Source of the DNA: Vampirovibrio sp.
Lineage (GTDB): Bacteria > Cyanobacteriota > Vampirovibrionia > Vampirovibrionales > Vampirovibrionaceae
Length of the DNA stretch: 64,000 nt
NCBI RefSeq assembly: GCF_041737375.1
Contig: NZ_JBGSRV010000003.1
Span: 76,522-140,521 of the forward strand
Direction of reading: 5' to 3'
The notes beneath the pieces are model-generated. The model searched no databases. It saw only the letters and a program-made list of their open reading frames with translations, and had not been told where the DNA came from. Of this stretch, positions 15,122 to 20,675 are shown piece by piece. Numbering within the stretch: the stretch's first letter is position 1; each line of letters starts with the position of its first letter. The position numbers and the translations under genes are program-made.

Positions 15122-15291
15122 GCTTTGGGGTTAAAGCAGGCTACGGCTTCTGCGAGGATGAGGGTGGGCTTCTAGTTTTTCTGGTGGGTTTTAGCCACTT
15201 TTTCCTGAGGCCTTCTCAACTCCAACAAAAAAGCCTTCCGGTTCAAAACTCGGAAAGCCTTCTGGTGTTTGGGTTTTCCACTTGTAAAAAG

Positions 15292-15368
15292 TGGCGGGGT
15301 GGACGGGACTCGAACCCGCGACATCTTGCGTGACAGGCAAGTACTCTAACCAACTGAGCTACCACCCC
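15292..15368 (-). tRNA. tRNA-Asp (anticodon GTC)
   Basis: Minus-strand sequence GGGGTGGTAGCTCAGTTGGTTAGAGTACTTGCCTGTCACGCAAGATGTCGCGGGTTCGAGTCCCGTCCACCCCGCCA. It has a 7-bp acceptor stem, the GTC anticodon in a CTGTCAC loop, a TTCGAGT T-loop and an encoded CCA. Confidence 0.9.
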
Positions 15369-15824
15369 GTGAGGTACGGTGTTCCTTTGGGGGACAGGAA
15401 TTTTATAACATAGCCGATTGGGGGACACAAGCGAAAATATTGAGAAAGGAATGCAAATAAAAGTTAAAATTTTGAAACCCCCTCTAGCAAAGCGTTATCG
15501 AAAACATTGAAAAAACAAGGCAAAAAAAGGCCGCATGAAGCGGCAAACTAAAAGAGGGGGGATGTAAGCGTTTATTATAAATTTATTTTGGGCCCAAAAA
15601 AGTGCAATGCATTTTACAGAGAAAGCTCTGGTGGGAGAGAATGGCCTACACAATGGGTCTAACGGATAAAATTGTTTTTTAAATTTAACGTTTTTATAAT
15701 ATTTGAACTTTGGAACCCAAAATGAACAGAGCCGCAACACCCTTGCCCCGACCGGCTTAGGCACCCAACCTCCGCATTGTGTGCCTGCGGTTGCCCTTGA
15801 TTTGAAAGAATGGAGGGAGCCTCA

Positions 15825-17321
15825 CTAATAACCGGTATAAGCGTTTCCGGGGCGATAGGGGCGGGCTTTTTTAAGCGGCTTGCGAGGCAACCGGCATTTT
15901 TGCATCACCGCATAGCGCAGGCAATCCATCACATCCTCGTACGGATGCTCCTGTAAGGGGGATTCCGAGCCGGATGGCCCGTAGCGGTATCCGCCCTCAA
16001 AGGCCTCAATCAGCTTTTCACATCCAAAATCCACCTGCAAAGCCGGACGGGGGCCAATCCATTCCGACAGCTTAACCCGCAGTAATTCCAACCCATCCTT
16101 GATGGATGACCTGTCAAAGAACGGAAACACCCCCATGCTATTCAGGATATCGATACTGGTTTGCAAGCTCTTGTCGGAGCGCTGAGCCCCCGCCGGATCG
16201 CAAATATCTTCCACCGGGACACTTCCGTAATTCACCTCGGTCAAATGGGTGACCCGTCGGGCGAAATCGGTGAGCAGTTCCTGCTTGCCTACCACTTCTC
16301 GCAGCACCAACAGCCGATCTTCGCTGTCAAAGGCCAAAAACAGGCACGAGGGGCAATGAAACCCAAAATCCCAGCTTCGAATCAGTTTGTGGGGCTTAAA
16401 CGCGGTAAAATCCCCTTTGTTGGCCTCGTTAAAATTACGAAACACCCGATCCTTCAAAGACAAGTGGTAGTTAATATCCAGCTCTCGGGCCACTTCATCT
16501 TCGCTCAGCCGTTTTTGCTGGTTGGCGTACCAGCCTTCATTGCGCAAGGGATGTTCCCGCCAGTGGATGCGTAACACCCGCACCTGCCCGGAAAATCGCA
16601 AATCGGCAAACCGGTTGTTCTTGCCATACGGGGTGCCTACCACAATGCGGCTGGGGGTAGACTGTCCGGCAGAGGCGTAAGCGGCGTCCTGCATGGGCCA
16701 AAAAGGGAACTCATCAAACAGAATGGCCTTGTAGCGCCCCCCTCGCCCAAAGTTCTCGTTGCTGCTTTCCCCGGTAATGGTGTTGCCGTTGGCCGGATTG
16801 AGCAAGCGCAGCAGGTTATCATGCACGTTGTCCTGAAACCCGGCTGGACGCATCCAGTGCGGTAACCAGGCCAGGTTGTAACGCAGTTTTTCCATCAGGG
16901 TAGACAGATCGCCCTTGCGATCCACCGCCTCCTGCTTGCGGGAACCCAAATGAAAATTGGCCCCGTCCCGAAACAGCCAGAAGTATTGAAAGGCCAAAAG
17001 CACCAGCCAGCTCAGGCCCATATCCCGGCTTTTTTCAATCAGCAGGTCTTCCCCCTTCTCAATGGCGGACACCAAATCCAGCAAGGCCGCTTCCTGAAAC
17101 GGGTAGGGCACAAAGGGCTGATGCGGCTGATCCAGCCGGGGGTCAAAAGTCCAGCAGAAATGCCGAAACCAGAAGCGGATATCCCGTTTGCACCAATGCA
17201 TCAACAAAGCCTGTAACTCGGGGTTCTCCTGCGCCGCCTGATACAAGCTCAGGCGGCGGGTTAACCAAGGGCGAGACGGCAAATCAGCGGCAGTATTTAT
17301 AGGGCTATTTGTATCACTCAT
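15825..17321 (-). CDS. Phage terminase large subunit-like protein (ATPase + RNase H-like nuclease)
   Basis: Deviant Walker A region (EKSRDMGLSW), Walker B (ILFDEFPFW), and acidic nuclease-domain motifs (WDFGFH, DICDPAG, EDVMDC). Length and domain order match Terminase_6-type TerL. Confidence 0.7.
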   Translation of the reverse strand: MSDTNSPINTAADLPSRPWLTRRLSLYQAAQENPELQALLMHWCKRDIRFWFRHFCWTFDPRLDQPHQPFVPYPFQEAALLDLVSAIEKGEDLLIEKSRDMGLSWLVLLAFQYFWLFRDGANFHLGSRKQEAVDRKGDLSTLMEKLRYNLAWLPHWMRPAGFQDNVHDNLLRLLNPANGNTITGESSNENFGRGGRYKAILFDEFPFWPMQDAAYASAGQSTPSRIVVGTPYGKNNRFADLRFSGQVRVLRIHWREHPLRNEGWYANQQKRLSEDEVARELDINYHLSLKDRVFRNFNEANKGDFTAFKPHKLIRSWDFGFHCPSCLFLAFDSEDRLLVLREVVGKQELLTDFARRVTHLTEVNYGSVPVEDICDPAGAQRSDKSLQTSIDILNSMGVFPFFDRSSIKDGLELLRVKLSEWIGPRPALQVDFGCEKLIEAFEGGYRYGPSGSESPLQEHPYEDVMDCLRYAVMQKCRLPRKPLKKARPYRPGNAYTGY

Positions 17322-17330
17322 GCCGGGCCT

Positions 17331-18077
17331 TTATATCCCCCCCATTAAGGCCAGGGCGATTTGAGAGCTGGTTCGCAAGGTACTTTCACGGTTCTGTCGG
17401 TTTTGTTCGGCCTGAAGGGCGGCGTTTTGATTGCTGACCTGCATGGCCAGATTGGCCCGTTGCACCGCCAAATCCGTGGCCCGCTGGGTTTCGTTCTGCA
17501 AAATACTGCTGCCATTGCTTTGCAAGCCTCGGGCCTGATTGTTCAAATCGGCCAGATAATTTTGAAACAGGGAAAACCGCCGCACCCGGCTGTCTTCATC
17601 GGCCCGATAAAGCTCTTCTCCCAGCAAGCCGGACTGCTTGTAGGCTTCCGATAACTGCCCCAGGCGGTTGTTTTCCAATTGCCCCAAAAAATGGGTGCCA
17701 AAGGTGGCGTTATAGGCGCCCCCAAACCGCTTGGCCAAGTTGGTGCGGGCTTTGGAGAGCTGATCGTTGGCGCTGCTATTAATACCGGCGGCTTGCAAAT
17801 CAAAAAAATCCTGACTGCGCTGATTGATGGCCTGCTGACGAACCGGGTCCGGCTGGTTCAGTTCTTTGGCCAAATTCTGAAGCCCCTTCAGGCTTTCTTC
17901 CACCGTTAAGCGGGTGGTGGGGGTCAAAAAGCTCTCAAAGCGTTGATCACTGCCTTTGGTGGTGGTCACATACCGATCGCCGGTCGGACTGTTAAATTCC
18001 ACCTTGGTAATGGCGGGTGGGGCCACGATTTTAACCACTTCCCGTTTGGGGGCTTTCTGCTTGCGTCCTAAAGACAT
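17331..18077 (-). CDS. Hypothetical Q/N-rich coiled-coil protein (candidate terminase small subunit / phage protein)
   Basis: AAGGAG RBS. Its stop lies 9 nt from the TerL start, indicating tight coupling. I do not recognise a domain. Confidence 0.5.
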   Translation of the reverse strand: MSLGRKQKAPKREVVKIVAPPAITKVEFNSPTGDRYVTTTKGSDQRFESFLTPTTRLTVEESLKGLQNLAKELNQPDPVRQQAINQRSQDFFDLQAAGINSSANDQLSKARTNLAKRFGGAYNATFGTHFLGQLENNRLGQLSEAYKQSGLLGEELYRADEDSRVRRFSLFQNYLADLNNQARGLQSNGSSILQNETQRATDLAVQRANLAMQVSNQNAALQAEQNRQNRESTLRTSSQIALALMGGI

Positions 18078-18142
18078 TGGGATGCTCCTTAAAAACTTGA
18101 CTGAACAGAGGGTTGATAGAATTGGACAGAAGATTAATAAAA

Positions 18143-18769
18143 TTAGAGAGAAGATTGATGGAAAGCCTGCGGCCCGTCTGGCAAGGGCTGACGCTTTTGC
18201 ACCCCTCGCAGCAAACGGGGCAATAACCAGCCTTGGTAACGATTGGCGGATACACTGTAAATAGCCACGTCCCGCAAACAGCCACCCAGCTTGATATCGG
18301 CTTTAAACAGGGCTTCCCGCTGAAAACCCCACCGCAGGCAAAAGCCCTTGGCCCCGGCGTTATCCAGTTCAAACTCAGCTTTCAGCTTTAGCAAGGCCAA
18401 GGGGCCAAAGGCGGCCTGAAAAATAGGAAGCAACAGGCGTTCCACCGCCGATCGGGCCTCTTTGTTTTCACGAAAATGGGAATGGGTGGCCCCGTGCAAA
18501 AACGCATGACGACCGGGCTGAATATCAGAGAGGGCAATAATGGCCCAAACCTGATCCGTCTCATCGGCCAGCACCCAAAGCCAGGGCAGGCAAGCGGCGG
18601 TATTTTCCGATAAAAAGTGGATATCTTGCTGTAAGTTTCCACTTTGGCGATAATCATCCAGCAAAATGGGGTGATGCGTCTGGAGCAACGCCTCAATACC
18701 GGGCTGATAGACGGCCCATTCTTGCAGGCTGGAAACGTGGCAAACCCGAAGCATGCTTAAGGTTCCCAA
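18143..18769 (-). CDS. GNAT-family N-acetyltransferase-like protein
   Basis: RimJ/RimL-like fold features with a C-terminal 'GFxLRWGFQRE...AIYS' motif. The start is uncertain. Confidence 0.5.
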   Translation of the reverse strand: MGTLSMLRVCHVSSLQEWAVYQPGIEALLQTHHPILLDDYRQSGNLQQDIHFLSENTAACLPWLWVLADETDQVWAIIALSDIQPGRHAFLHGATHSHFRENKEARSAVERLLLPIFQAAFGPLALLKLKAEFELDNAGAKGFCLRWGFQREALFKADIKLGGCLRDVAIYSVSANRYQGWLLPRLLRGVQKRQPLPDGPQAFHQSSL

Positions 18770-19068
18770 TCCTTGATGTAAGTACGCACCCGGTTCAGCA
18801 GCTCTTGCTCGCTGAGCTGCTCCAGCTCGGCAGGCTCCAGAGGTGTTTCTGCCTTTTTGCCTTTTTTCACCACAGCGGTATTGGCATCTTCAGCGGGGGT
18901 GCGTTTCAGTATTAAATCCACCGCCCAGATTTTATCTTTCATGCTTTCAGAATCCAGGGCCTCGTCAATAACCCCCAGCACCCGGTGATAGCGGTCCGAG
19001 AGGGCGTCCAGCAAATTCTTCAGTTTGGGCAGCAGTCCGCCGGTGGATGGTATTTTTTTGGGTTTCAT
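18757..19068 (-). CDS. Hypothetical small protein
   Basis: 103-aa ORF with an AGGA RBS. It overlaps the following ORF in another frame. Weak. Confidence 0.3.
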   Translation of the reverse strand: MKPKKIPSTGGLLPKLKNLLDALSDRYHRVLGVIDEALDSESMKDKIWAVDLILKRTPAEDANTAVVKKGKKAETPLEPAELEQLSEQELLNRVRTYIKDWEP

Positions 19069-19393
19069 ATACAGTATCCTGTCGTTGGGCTTGGGCAATT
19101 CGGTGCAGGTAATCGAGGGGCGGATCGGTGGCCCGGCTGATGCGTGCGGTGTATTCACCCACCATCATTCTGGCGGAACCTACGCCAACCGCTTGCTGTG
19201 GCTTACGACCGCCTTGCCAGTCGGCCAAAGTGGCGGGTTGCAGGGGGCCTTGCAAACTGGTTTTCTGCAACAGGCATTTAAATTTGCATCGTTTGCAGCG
19301 TTTTTTATACAGCAAGGCATTTCCGGCAGCGTGTATCCGCACTTCTATCGTTTTTAAAAACAGGCTTTTGCAGTGGTCGCATTGATATGGCAT
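18965..19393 (-). CDS. Hypothetical C4 zinc-finger protein
   Basis: N-terminal YQCDHCK...CKRCKFKC motif. The rest is low complexity, so only the N-terminal part may be real. Confidence 0.3.
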   Translation of the reverse strand: MPYQCDHCKSLFLKTIEVRIHAAGNALLYKKRCKRCKFKCLLQKTSLQGPLQPATLADWQGGRKPQQAVGVGSARMMVGEYTARISRATDPPLDYLHRIAQAQRQDTVYETQKNTIHRRTAAQTEEFAGRPLGPLSPGAGGY

Positions 19394-19486
19394 AACGCCC
19401 CTCACGTTCTAGACAGTCAGCAGCGCTGTCGCGTGAATTTAGTATGAAGGTGGGGTTTGGATTTTCCCAGCGAAGCAGATTTATGA

Positions 19487-19820
19487 TTTCAAGGGGGCCA
19501 GCCCCCTTGGAATCCCCCGCTGGGGACGGGTTGTGTCCCCAGACCCCTCAAATATGGGGGAAGGGTGAATCGAAGAACGTGCCTTTCAAGGGGGCTAGCC
19601 CCCTTGGGTGTCATTGGCTGGGGGTGGGTTTTGTTTTCAGGCCTCTCAAATACTGCGGGGATACCGTTTCCTAGAATGCGCTTTTCAAGGGGCTTGCCCC
19701 TTGAATGAATGCCCATAAGCCCCCTATCTAAAAAACACCTCTCTCCCTCCTACCTGAGGGGTCTGGGGACACAGTCCGTCCCCAGCGGGGGATCCCAAGG
19801 GGGCTGGCCCCCTTGAAAAT
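19487..19820. repeat. Composite palindrome-rich repeat element (MITE-like) with ~66-bp terminal inverted repeats
   Basis: The left arm 19487-19552 and the reverse complement of the right arm 19753-19819 are ~62/66 identical. Four copies of the 20-bp palindrome caagggggc(c/t)(a/t)gcccccttg sit at ~98-bp spacing. Confidence 0.7.
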
Positions 19821-20093
19821 CCACTATTTATAAAATAGCAACTACAAAACCAGCTCCAAAAACCCCAGCAAACCCTTTGGGGCGAACTTACACTAAAGCG
19901 TTTTTGTCAAACAAACACCAAGAAAAGATTACGAAATGTAAACTCACCCCAACCGCCTGCCCATCAACACCTTGGCAAAAGCTCTTATTTTTGTTTTTAT
20001 TTTTATTTCTCTCAATGAGGATTCTCAGCTAGAATAATTTCATCGATTGGAAGTGACCACCACTAACGTTTACAGAGGGATGGAACCAGCGCC

Positions 20094-20675
20094 ATGATTG
20101 ACGCAATGGATCGGCTTAAAGTGCCGAAATGTAAAGCTGCCCAAGCCAATAAGCCAGTGCAGTTTGGGCAAAAAACAACACCCATCCACAGCCAGCCCAC
20201 CCAACAGGGCGATGTTTTTGTGAAATCCGCAAAGCCAGCCGAGGCCAATAGCAAAGCTTCGGCCCCCGCTCAAAGCAAAAACCCGATGGGCGCGGCCCTG
20301 CAAAACTTTGTGAAACAGGCCAGCAAAGCGGACAATCCCTTGATGAACGCCTTGAAAAAACTGGCCCCGGCCAGCCCGCCCGCCCAACTGGAAGCCAGCC
20401 GCAAGCCTGCTGAAATACCGGCAGGGGCCAGCACCCAATCGCCTTTCCTGAAAGCTGGAGAACACACCCTGGCTTCGCCCGAAAAAGCGTTTGCCACCCA
20501 GCCGACCAGCGCCCAAATCAATACCCGTAATAAAGTTAATTTGTTTGCCGGAGCCGCTGTCACGTCCGCAGGGCTGGGCGCTTTAACCGGCATGGTAATG
20601 GGACCTGCCGCCATTGCCGCCAATCCGGCCTTGCTGAATAAAATGATTGCTCTGTTGCCCACGCAACTGCCCTAA
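20094..20675 (+). CDS. Hypothetical Ala/Pro/Lys-rich protein with a C-terminal hydrophobic segment
   Basis: 193-aa ORF with a GAGGGA RBS, a low-complexity N-terminus and a hydrophobic C-terminus (possibly tail-anchored). Confidence 0.45.
   Translation: MIDAMDRLKVPKCKAAQANKPVQFGQKTTPIHSQPTQQGDVFVKSAKPAEANSKASAPAQSKNPMGAALQNFVKQASKADNPLMNALKKLAPASPPAQLEASRKPAEIPAGASTQSPFLKAGEHTLASPEKAFATQPTSAQINTRNKVNLFAGAAVTSAGLGALTGMVMGPAAIAANPALLNKMIALLPTQLP

Follow-up and report, generated by a model that had tools for sequence, protein, structure and literature searches.

A locus-bound palindromic mosaic element of Vampirovibrio subject to inversion and tandem amplification

The 64-kb stretch of Vampirovibrio sp. 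DNA analysed in this study (hereafter the window) contains a short palindrome-rich element for which a preliminary description had considered three identities: a MITE, a packaging (cos/pac) or attachment site belonging to a terminase island, or a structured non-coding RNA. The question raised by the locus is which of these proposals, or what other kind of repeat, best accounts for the architecture of the element, and whether its position beside a terminase-like operon has any significance.

Anatomy of the element

Measured from outer end to outer end of its inverted arms, the palindromic mosaic element occupies 332 bp (19487..19818). Inverted-repeat and BLAST comparison defined a left arm (19487..19561, plus strand) consisting of the module TTT-H1-GAATCCCCCG-H2-ACCCCTCA, and a right arm (19744..19818, minus strand) that is the same module inverted. 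In general form, the module comprises some 60-75 nt in the order TTT, H1, the linker ATCCCCCG, H2 (a second GC-rich hairpin or palindrome) and ACCCC. The preliminary description had claimed inverted arms of about 66 bp, and realignment bore this out: the arms, of 75 nt each and separated by 182 nt, were 91% complementary, with a BLAST identity of 95.3% over the inner 64 nt (E=1e-23). An inverted 36-bp sub-repeat, also claimed, was duly located at 19515-19550 (plus strand) and 19755-19790 (minus strand), with no mismatches outside two free positions. What had been missed was that part of the interior repeats the left module directly, in decayed form (19584-19703 is 74% identical to 19487-19606), and that in this copy the degenerate unit 2 (19584..19682, plus strand) has kept H1 intact (19587-19606) and has a decayed H2. 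The order within the element was found to be module, degenerate module, the central palindrome Hc, approximately 40 nt, and inverted module. Its GC content was 58%, compared with 52% for the whole window and 40% for the adjacent spacer on the right.

Both boundaries are marked by conserved DNA lying outside the element. On the left (19462..19486, minus strand) is the conserved upstream box of the TerL operon, TCATAAATNTGCTTCGCTGGGAAAA when read on the minus strand, which was present in all TerL loci irrespective of whether the element was present or absent. On the right (19822..20093, plus strand) is the conserved upstream region of a gene coding for a protein of 193 amino acids, which exhibited 77-84% nucleotide identity in five genomes with or without the element.

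Perfect copies of the 20-nt palindrome H1, CAAGGGGGC-NN-GCCCCCTTG, were located at 19490, 19587 and 19796 (n=3, with 0.19 expected; three or more occurred in 0 of 100 shuffles). The outer two are H1-L, a perfect 9-2-9 palindrome of the form CAAGGGGGC-CA-GCCCCCTTG (19490..19509), and H1-R, the perfect palindrome CAAGGGGGC-TG-GCCCCCTTG (19796..19815). Three of the four 20-bp palindromes originally claimed were thereby confirmed, and the remaining one proved to be a shorter relative, CAAGGGGCTTGCCCCTTG at 19686, with four G residues rather than five. This relative extends to the 22-nt perfect palindrome Hc (19684..19705), which has the form TTCAAGGGGC-TT-GCCCCTTGAA with perfect 10-bp arms. The claimed spacing of about 98 bp held for the first two intervals (97 and 99 nt) and not for the third (110 nt). 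The formula (c/t)(a/t) offered for the palindrome centres misses the last copy, because the four centres are CA, TA, TT and TG, that of H1-R being the reverse complement of that of H1-L. H2 was represented on the left by the hairpin CTGGGGAC-GGGTTGT-GTCCCCAG with an 8-bp stem (H2-L, 19520..19542), and on the right by CTGGGGAC-ACAGTCC-GTCCCCAG (H2-R, 19763..19785). Neither the element as a whole nor any of these named palindromes and hairpins is assigned to a particular strand.

Structure prediction, which had been suggested as a check, gave for either strand of the whole element one single long hairpin that was far more stable than those of shuffled sequences (z = -12 and -15), and the individual hairpins, when folded as RNA, each yielded values of -14 to -17 kcal/mol. 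The short ORFs called through the region had been considered artefacts, an opinion upheld by the translations of those at 19444-19674 and 19489-19716, which had no relatives among 5.8 billion proteins. Rfam 15 was searched at its gathering threshold and also with a relaxed E-value, which yielded only sub-threshold noise; no match attained the gathering score, the best being 28.9 bits against a cut-off of 53.1. Neither a sigma-70-type promoter consensus nor a hairpin plus T-run characteristic of an intrinsic terminator was detected inside the window element; a weak hairpin plus T-run was present after each unit of the corresponding element in a second genome (L022) and after the left module in a third (L036).

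Chromosomal setting and distribution among relatives

The window proved to be ordinary Vampirovibrio sp. chromosome with housekeeping genes around the element: those for ATP synthase and ribosomal protein L25, riboflavin genes, a GHL10 hydrolase, transporters and a two-component system, together with SecA and PriA, which were assigned via synteny with the annotated loci L020 and L022. The gene to the right of the element (20094-20675) encodes the conserved, membrane-anchored 193-aa protein. To the left, on the minus strand, is a five-ORF operon, the last gene of which codes for a true homolog of TerL, matching PHROG_2 at 1e-21 and the TerL ATPase domain of Acinetobacter phages at 41% identity. 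This operon is followed by tRNA-Asp, and in every relative TerL lay 5' of tRNA-Asp; the TerL relatives belong to Vampirovibrionales and Melainabacteria genomes. Searches of Pfam, PHROGs, PADLOC and NCBIfam with the TerL-operon proteins and the 193-aa protein returned only the TerL match and a weak GNAT match. No capsid, portal, integrase, transposase, recombinase or RAYT gene was present among the ORFs scanned at 0.5-42 kb, and no ParA/ParB-type genes were found near the element. Cyanobacterial HIP1 was absent; the host is a non-photosynthetic Vampirovibrio. A replication terminus, dif site or oriC was considered and rejected, as none of the window, L022, L035, L036 and L038 showed a consistent change of sign in GC skew, and no dif site or DnaA-box cluster judged convincing by eye was seen. 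The literature contained nothing relevant on Vampirovibrio repeats or terminase.

The proposal that the element is a feature of a terminase island failed when TerL loci were compared in relatives with 64-86% TerL identity. The spacers upstream of the TerL operons of L028, L029 and L031 were short and devoid of the palindromes, as were those of L032 (82% TerL identity) and L034 (86%). In L035, the gene order was that of the window (TerL operon, spacer, 188-aa ortholog, L25, GHL10) and the 416-bp spacer lacked the element; with the window gene order retained on both sides of an element-free spacer, this locus therefore represents an empty site. Six TerL operons of relatives are thus without the element, and V. 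chlorellavorus (L036, GCA_003149375.1) has the element and no TerL operon within 8 kb. There, the element lies immediately upstream of a 179-aa ortholog of the 193-aa gene and begins a few bases past the stop codon of a co-directional upstream gene, the left neighbour of the locus being an unrelated APH-like gene. No att-like direct repeat was found pairing the element with tRNA-Asp, the sole 33-nt match (73%) falling inside a conserved ORF, and phage and plasmid records contained no DNA similar to the element. No link of the element to the terminase operon is supported.

Three Vampirovibrio genomes (the window, L022 and L036) carry the element at the orthologous position, and two others (L035 and L038) lack it, L038 having a canonical terminator in its place. 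The element is dispensable, since both L035 and L038 retain the 193-aa ortholog and its conserved upstream region without it. Because three different left neighbours were seen (the TerL operon, the APH-like gene and a gene for a solute-binding protein), the site of the element constitutes a recurrent synteny break. The carriers differ markedly in make-up, the number of modules being 1, approximately 2, and 7.5 over the three genomes. In L036, a single left module precedes Hc, beyond which lie the right module, inverted, and another, partial copy of it. The spacer of L022 (GCA_003149345.1) extends to 1.7 kb and holds an array in which a 134-nt unit is repeated 7.5 times in tandem (96% identity); Hc comes next, and an inverted terminal module closes the element. 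Between the window and L022, the module was about 82% identical, compared with 76-78% nucleotide identity for conserved coding DNA; the 193-aa protein was 47-48% identical to its orthologs in the carrier genomes.

Across these genomes, H1 and Hc are kept perfect via compensated changes. H1 was perfect in 11 of 12 copies, with changes of the outer pair from C-G to A-T and of the inner pair from G-C to A-T, and both palindrome arms were altered together in the variants recorded: CAAGGGGGC/GCCCCCTTG in the window, AAAGGGGGC/GCCCCCTTT in L022 and L036, and AAGGGGAC/GTCCCCTT in the right arms of the L022/L036 clade. Hc, the counterpart of which in L022 and L036 is TCGAATGGGGC-AG-GCCCCATTCGA, was perfect in all three genomes despite several (paired) differences. 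H2 retained its CTGGG...CCCAG base, with a variable tip and, frequently, one mismatch.

The L036 and L022 elements aligned best in reverse orientation, at 76% identity over 291 nt (E=6e-56), compared with 64.5% in forward orientation; the right flank was collinear. Once every palindromic portion had been taken out, L036 retained a unique 77-nt segment on the right-hand side of Hc, and this segment matched sequence on the left-hand side of Hc in L022 only as the reverse complement (score 51; shuffles averaged 7.9 and did not exceed 16). As the flanking genes were collinear and 80-91% identical and the inverted segment itself was 83% identical, the locus is orthologous and the inversion took place in situ. 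In L022 as in L036, the outer H1 variant is GGGGGC at the left end and GGGGAC at the right end, which places the crossover inside the arms; it follows from the inversion of the intervening segment between two species that the arms have recombined. Two short-read assemblies ended inside the element. The break in Logan contig L037 was at the inner edge of the right arm, and did not fit a simple two-orientation graph.

Dispersal had been suggested as the means of distinguishing a MITE from a unique site. No second copy of the element was present in the 64-kb window. A module profile run over 251 kb of Vampirovibrionales DNA detected only this locus, in the window, L022 and L036 plus the overlapping Logan contigs L023 and L037, and no extra copies occurred in the 102 kb covered of the three carrier genomes (16-64 kb each). 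Pattern scans were similarly negative: H1 plus its TTT flank gave only single matches in unrelated taxa among GTDB genomes, none of them in Vampirovibrionales; H1 plus linker gave four unrelated singletons in JGI metagenomes; and an H1-based pattern had no match in IMG/VR. Dispersal was therefore not borne out, there being no second copy in the sequence covered. Comparison of the target site with the empty L035 locus revealed no clean duplication, the spacer having diverged, with 41 unrelated nt at the site. Judged by published definitions of MITE features (PMC3049150), the element possesses terminal inverted repeats, small size, no coding capacity and a highly base-paired fold, but at 58% GC it is not AT-rich. 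The evidence on the MITE proposal is consequently divided, with shape in its favour, and GC-richness, the absence of a visible target-site duplication and the lack of a second copy in the 16-64 kb available per carrier genome counting against it.

Collectively, these comparisons describe an element that is locus-bound and vertically inherited, and that has undergone inversion and tandem amplification with its palindromes kept perfect.

Alternative explanations

The alternative that survived best, although it is itself unlikely, is that of a host cis-acting site for the 193-aa gene, functioning either as a palindromic operator array or as a recombinational inversion switch (inverton). In the operator version, the core GGGG(G/A)C-NN-G(C/T)CCCC would be a putative site for a dimeric protein; in the switch version, H1 (9-2-9) or a 10-2-10 form of H2 would be a putative crossover site for a recombinase encoded elsewhere, and expression would be orientation-dependent. 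A cis-acting site would be consistent with the fact that three divergent genomes have the element in a fixed position next to the conserved DNA upstream of the 193-aa ortholog, with a module as conserved as regulatory DNA, and with the conservation of H1 in both sequence and symmetry; the genomes L035 and L038, however, keep gene and upstream region in the absence of the element. The switch version draws additionally on the true inversion of the internal segment between L036 and L022, and on left and right centres that are reverse-complementary, as inversion sites require (CA/TG for H1 in the window; CT/AG for H2 in L022 and L036). Classical invertible promoters are, moreover, similar in size to the element (~330 bp). 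Set against these points, the invertible segment contained no sigma-70-type promoter in the window, L022 or L036, and no invertase or recombinase was found among the ORFs at 0.5-42 kb, one encoded elsewhere being possible. Furthermore, arms of 60-75 nt are far longer than typical inverton repeats, and a single inversion between species 80-90% identical is explicable by rare RecA-mediated exchange. A more specialised version, which must be considered doubtful, envisages an element peculiar to Vampirovibrio that works either as a programmed switch operated by recombination or as an operator array that forms cruciforms. H1 and H2 (9-2-9 and 10-2-10 palindromes, with reverse-complementary centres at the two ends) would be putative crossover or binding sites for a recombinase or regulator encoded elsewhere; flipping or module number would then set expression of the 193-aa protein plus, where adjacent, that of the terminase-like operon.

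It is similarly improbable that the element acts as RNA, whether as a transcript-end stabiliser, terminator or insulator or, in L022, as tandem small RNA genes. The very stable hairpins (-14 to -17 kcal/mol) and whole-element fold (z = -12, -15) would suit such a role, as would the start of the V. chlorellavorus element just after the stop codon of a co-directional gene, the ordinary terminator at the equivalent position in L038, and the weak hairpin plus T-run that follows each L022 unit and the L036 left module. In both the window and L022, however, the element lies upstream of the conserved promoter-proximal regions of its two divergent neighbours, so that no annotated transcript would be expected to extend across it. 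H1 and H2 lack following T-runs in an organism that uses canonical terminators, and a promoter consensus was absent from every unit. Likewise, the best Rfam score (28.9 versus 53.1 bits) did not amount to a match, and the near-always perfect H1 and Hc, with their 2-nt centres, fit DNA symmetry better than an RNA hairpin. The structured non-coding RNA of the preliminary description consequently lost ground on two counts: the window copy had neither an Rfam match nor a promoter or terminator consensus, and placement relative to transcription units varied among genomes.

Slightly less probable still is that the element represents one copy of an active dispersed MITE family, served by a transposase in trans and with other copies elsewhere in the genome. 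Terminal inverted repeats, small size, non-coding sequence and a long-hairpin fold are compatible with this, as are a presence or absence that differs between closely related genomes and assemblies that break inside the element; by simple arithmetic, a genome of a few Mb could also hold tens of copies without statistical conflict with the one seen in 64 kb. By way of contrast, the element occupies an orthologous position even though the neighbouring protein is only 47-48% identical, and its internal sequence (83%) is as similar as the flanks, which together argue for vertical descent rather than fresh insertions. Extra copies were lacking in 102 kb of the carriers and in 251 kb overall, the collection scans gave no Vampirovibrionales match, and the element shows no clear target-site duplication and is not AT-rich.

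Least likely of all, to the extent of being highly improbable, is a pac/cos packaging signal or attachment site of a terminase-containing island: the element does lie directly upstream of an operon ending in a TerL homolog in the window and L022, and some phages have cos sites directly upstream of the terminase operon, but it is absent from six TerL operons of relatives, is present in V. chlorellavorus without an adjacent TerL operon, and has no att-like direct repeat paired with tRNA-Asp, no similarity to phage or plasmid records, and no capsid, portal, integrase or other phage genes flanking the window operon.

Preferred reading and comparison with known systems

The reading preferred to these alternatives, adopted tentatively and with rather less than even confidence, is that of a non-coding palindromic mosaic repeat confined to this locus and acting as DNA, which resembles REPIN, BIME and BOX elements and is subject to arm recombination and tandem amplification. 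A non-autonomous repeat of the REP/REPIN/BIME/BOX kind, either selfish or a relic, would have entered the spacer in an ancestor of these Vampirovibrio lineages. The basic arrangement is one module at each end, inverted, around Hc, with extra modules accumulating as tandem direct copies. Hairpin or cruciform formation with template-switch correction could keep the palindromes, the inverted arms would undergo gene conversion and crossover, and direct modules slipped or unequal exchange; deletion would account for the absence of the element from some lineages. Such a repeat would have no role in the terminase-like operon, and any effects on neighbouring promoters would probably be incidental.

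Against this preferred reading stands the fact that known families of such repeats are dispersed in tens to hundreds of copies, whereas one locus was seen here in the 16-64 kb covered of each carrier genome; moreover, no candidate enzyme (transposase, RAYT or recombinase) was recorded among the ORFs at 0.5-42 kb. It is also apparent from the aligned sequences that the module has changed about as little as the coding and regulatory DNA around it, a level of conservation that a host function would explain as well as self-maintenance does.

In practical terms, the annotation of the locus is corrected, in that the phage-island packaging or attachment label is removed and both the spurious ORFs and the assembly-break site are flagged. 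Palindromic mosaic repeats are usually studied as large dispersed families; this element, by comparison, looks to be a single-locus case that has outlasted speciation, with a segment that flips and a unit number that rises from 1 to 7.5. Were it to prove single-locus in complete genomes, such structures would either persist without transposition or have a host function. Vampirovibrio preys on commercial Chlorella cultures, and the tandem array is a ready strain-typing marker for it.

Four known systems invite comparison. In the sopC centromere of plasmid F, SopB binds a 7-2-7 GC-rich palindrome that is present in every one of the tandem 43-bp units. The element resembles this centromere in having tandem units with a perfect GC-rich palindrome, a 2-bp centre and a variable copy number, but is located in a chromosome among housekeeping genes with no ParA/ParB-type genes nearby, and its units are of 100-134 nt and include an inverted terminal copy. 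Invertons (fimS of E. coli; PhaseFinder and DeepInverton catalogues, PMC11602134) similarly comprise a segment of a few hundred bp with inverted repeats upstream of a gene, and occur in both orientations, as was observed here between two species (L036 and L022). However, the segment yielded no promoter and its surroundings no invertase, and the arms are of 60-75 nt rather than approximately 10-30 nt.

BOX elements consist of boxA and boxC around a variable tandem array of boxB (Croucher et al. 2011, PMC3049150). Like BOX of Streptococcus pneumoniae, the Vampirovibrio element is composite, with two end modules that pair with each other, has a module whose tandem copy number varies between strains or species, and is situated near promoters, where such elements are able to affect neighbouring genes. 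By way of contrast, BOX is dispersed in >100 copies and is AT-richer, its amplified boxB is internal and distinct from the ends, whereas here the end module itself is amplified, and the two have no sequence similarity.

REPINs are inverted doublets of REP sequences, and tandem REPIN/REP clusters also exist (Bertels and Rainey 2011, PMC3116915), and in BIMEs palindromic units are set out in regular arrays (Croucher et al. 2011, PMC3049150). The features shared with these are short, GC-rich palindromes, their arrangement in inverted doublets whose fold is a single long hairpin, nearly identical higher-order tandem arrays, and an extragenic location that is long-lasting within the lineage. The differences are that REPINs and BIMEs number tens to hundreds of copies per genome, compared with the one locus per genome seen here in 16-64 kb of each, that they are tied to a RAYT transposase gene, none being present among the window ORFs scanned, and that the spacer of the doublet is here long (182 nt), with its own central palindrome. 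On account of its apparent single locus, long palindrome-bearing spacer, GC-richness and lack of a known partner enzyme, the element was not filed in the REPIN, BIME or BOX families; tandem REP/REPIN clusters and composite BOX/BIME elements are nevertheless its closest analogues.

The terminase homolog and its operon

The homolog of the large terminase subunit (TerL) and the small ORFs associated with it occupy positions 15825-19405 on the minus strand, where they are surrounded by housekeeping genes; no capsid or portal genes were found adjoining TerL. The protein is conserved across the Vampirovibrionales at 40-91% identity, including on Mb-scale contigs, and in all seven of the TerL loci inspected small ORFs precede it, while an sRNA-like element and tRNA-Asp come after it. 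Taken as a whole, the module looks like a packaging-ATPase module that has been long retained or domesticated, and not like a recent prophage.

The first ORF of the operon (18757-19405, minus strand) begins M-x-YQC-x-x-C, a start that looks like a zinc ribbon. It encodes 142-146 aa and, depending on the choice of start codon, overlaps the next ORF by ~100-190 nt. Its orthologs in GCA_003149345.1 (L022) and L032 are 106-109 aa long and without overlap, and the counterpart at the empty site (L035) is represented by stretches of 135 aa and 75 aa; such differences in length and overlap may reflect either a frameshift or a gene boundary that varies.

A direct match of 33 nt (73% identity) joins the 3' end of tRNA-Asp (15275-15307) with a stretch inside this first ORF (19214-19246). 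As a candidate scar of tRNA integration it was judged to be a chance similarity, because it lies on the wrong side for such a scar and within a conserved ORF.

A tiny sRNA-like gene and a conserved upstream region

A tiny sRNA-like gene (15522-15579, minus strand), conserved in every TerL locus (the window, L021, L028, L029, L031, L032 and L033), lies after the stop codon of TerL and ahead of tRNA-Asp. Its layout runs from an invariant TATAAT through A(C/T)ATCCCCCCTCTTTTAGTYTGCCGC, a variable loop and GCGGC to a run of seven to nine T residues. No Rfam family was found for it, and its C-rich CCUC resembles, as a sequence, the anti-Shine-Dalgarno sequence.

To the right of the palindromic element, the DNA upstream of the gene for a 193-aa protein (20094-20675) is retained at 77-84% nucleotide identity in five genomes (19822-20093), whereas the protein itself is only 47-72% identical. 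The conserved motifs comprise two (G)TCACTAT-like boxes, CCCTTTGGGGC, a T-rich tract, TAGAATAATTTCATCGATTGGAA and the inverted pair GTTTACA...TGTAAAC; possible readings of this stretch are a complex regulatory region and a leader.

Assembly breaks and occurrences of the H1 palindrome elsewhere

The element locus is an assembly break point: the Logan short-read contigs L023 and L037 both terminate within it. L023 breaks off (position 1, equivalent to L022 7786) at the first of the tandem units, L037 (position 1, equivalent to 7506 of the V. chlorellavorus locus L036) at the right arm's inner edge. Array sizes taken from draft genomes may be unreliable.

H1, the perfect GC-rich palindrome of the element module, together with its linker forms a 28-nt motif (GGGGGC-NN-GCCCCCTT-NNN-ATCCCCCGC) present as single copies in unrelated JGI metagenome contigs (L024-L027), where it is commoner than uniform chance predicts. 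In Bacillota MAGs (loci L003, L008, L010, L016 and L019), a hairpin identical to H1 belongs, in two of the MAGs, to a dispersed repeat of several hairpins. These occurrences elsewhere could mean either that G5/C5 hairpins have converged or that the module is widespread.
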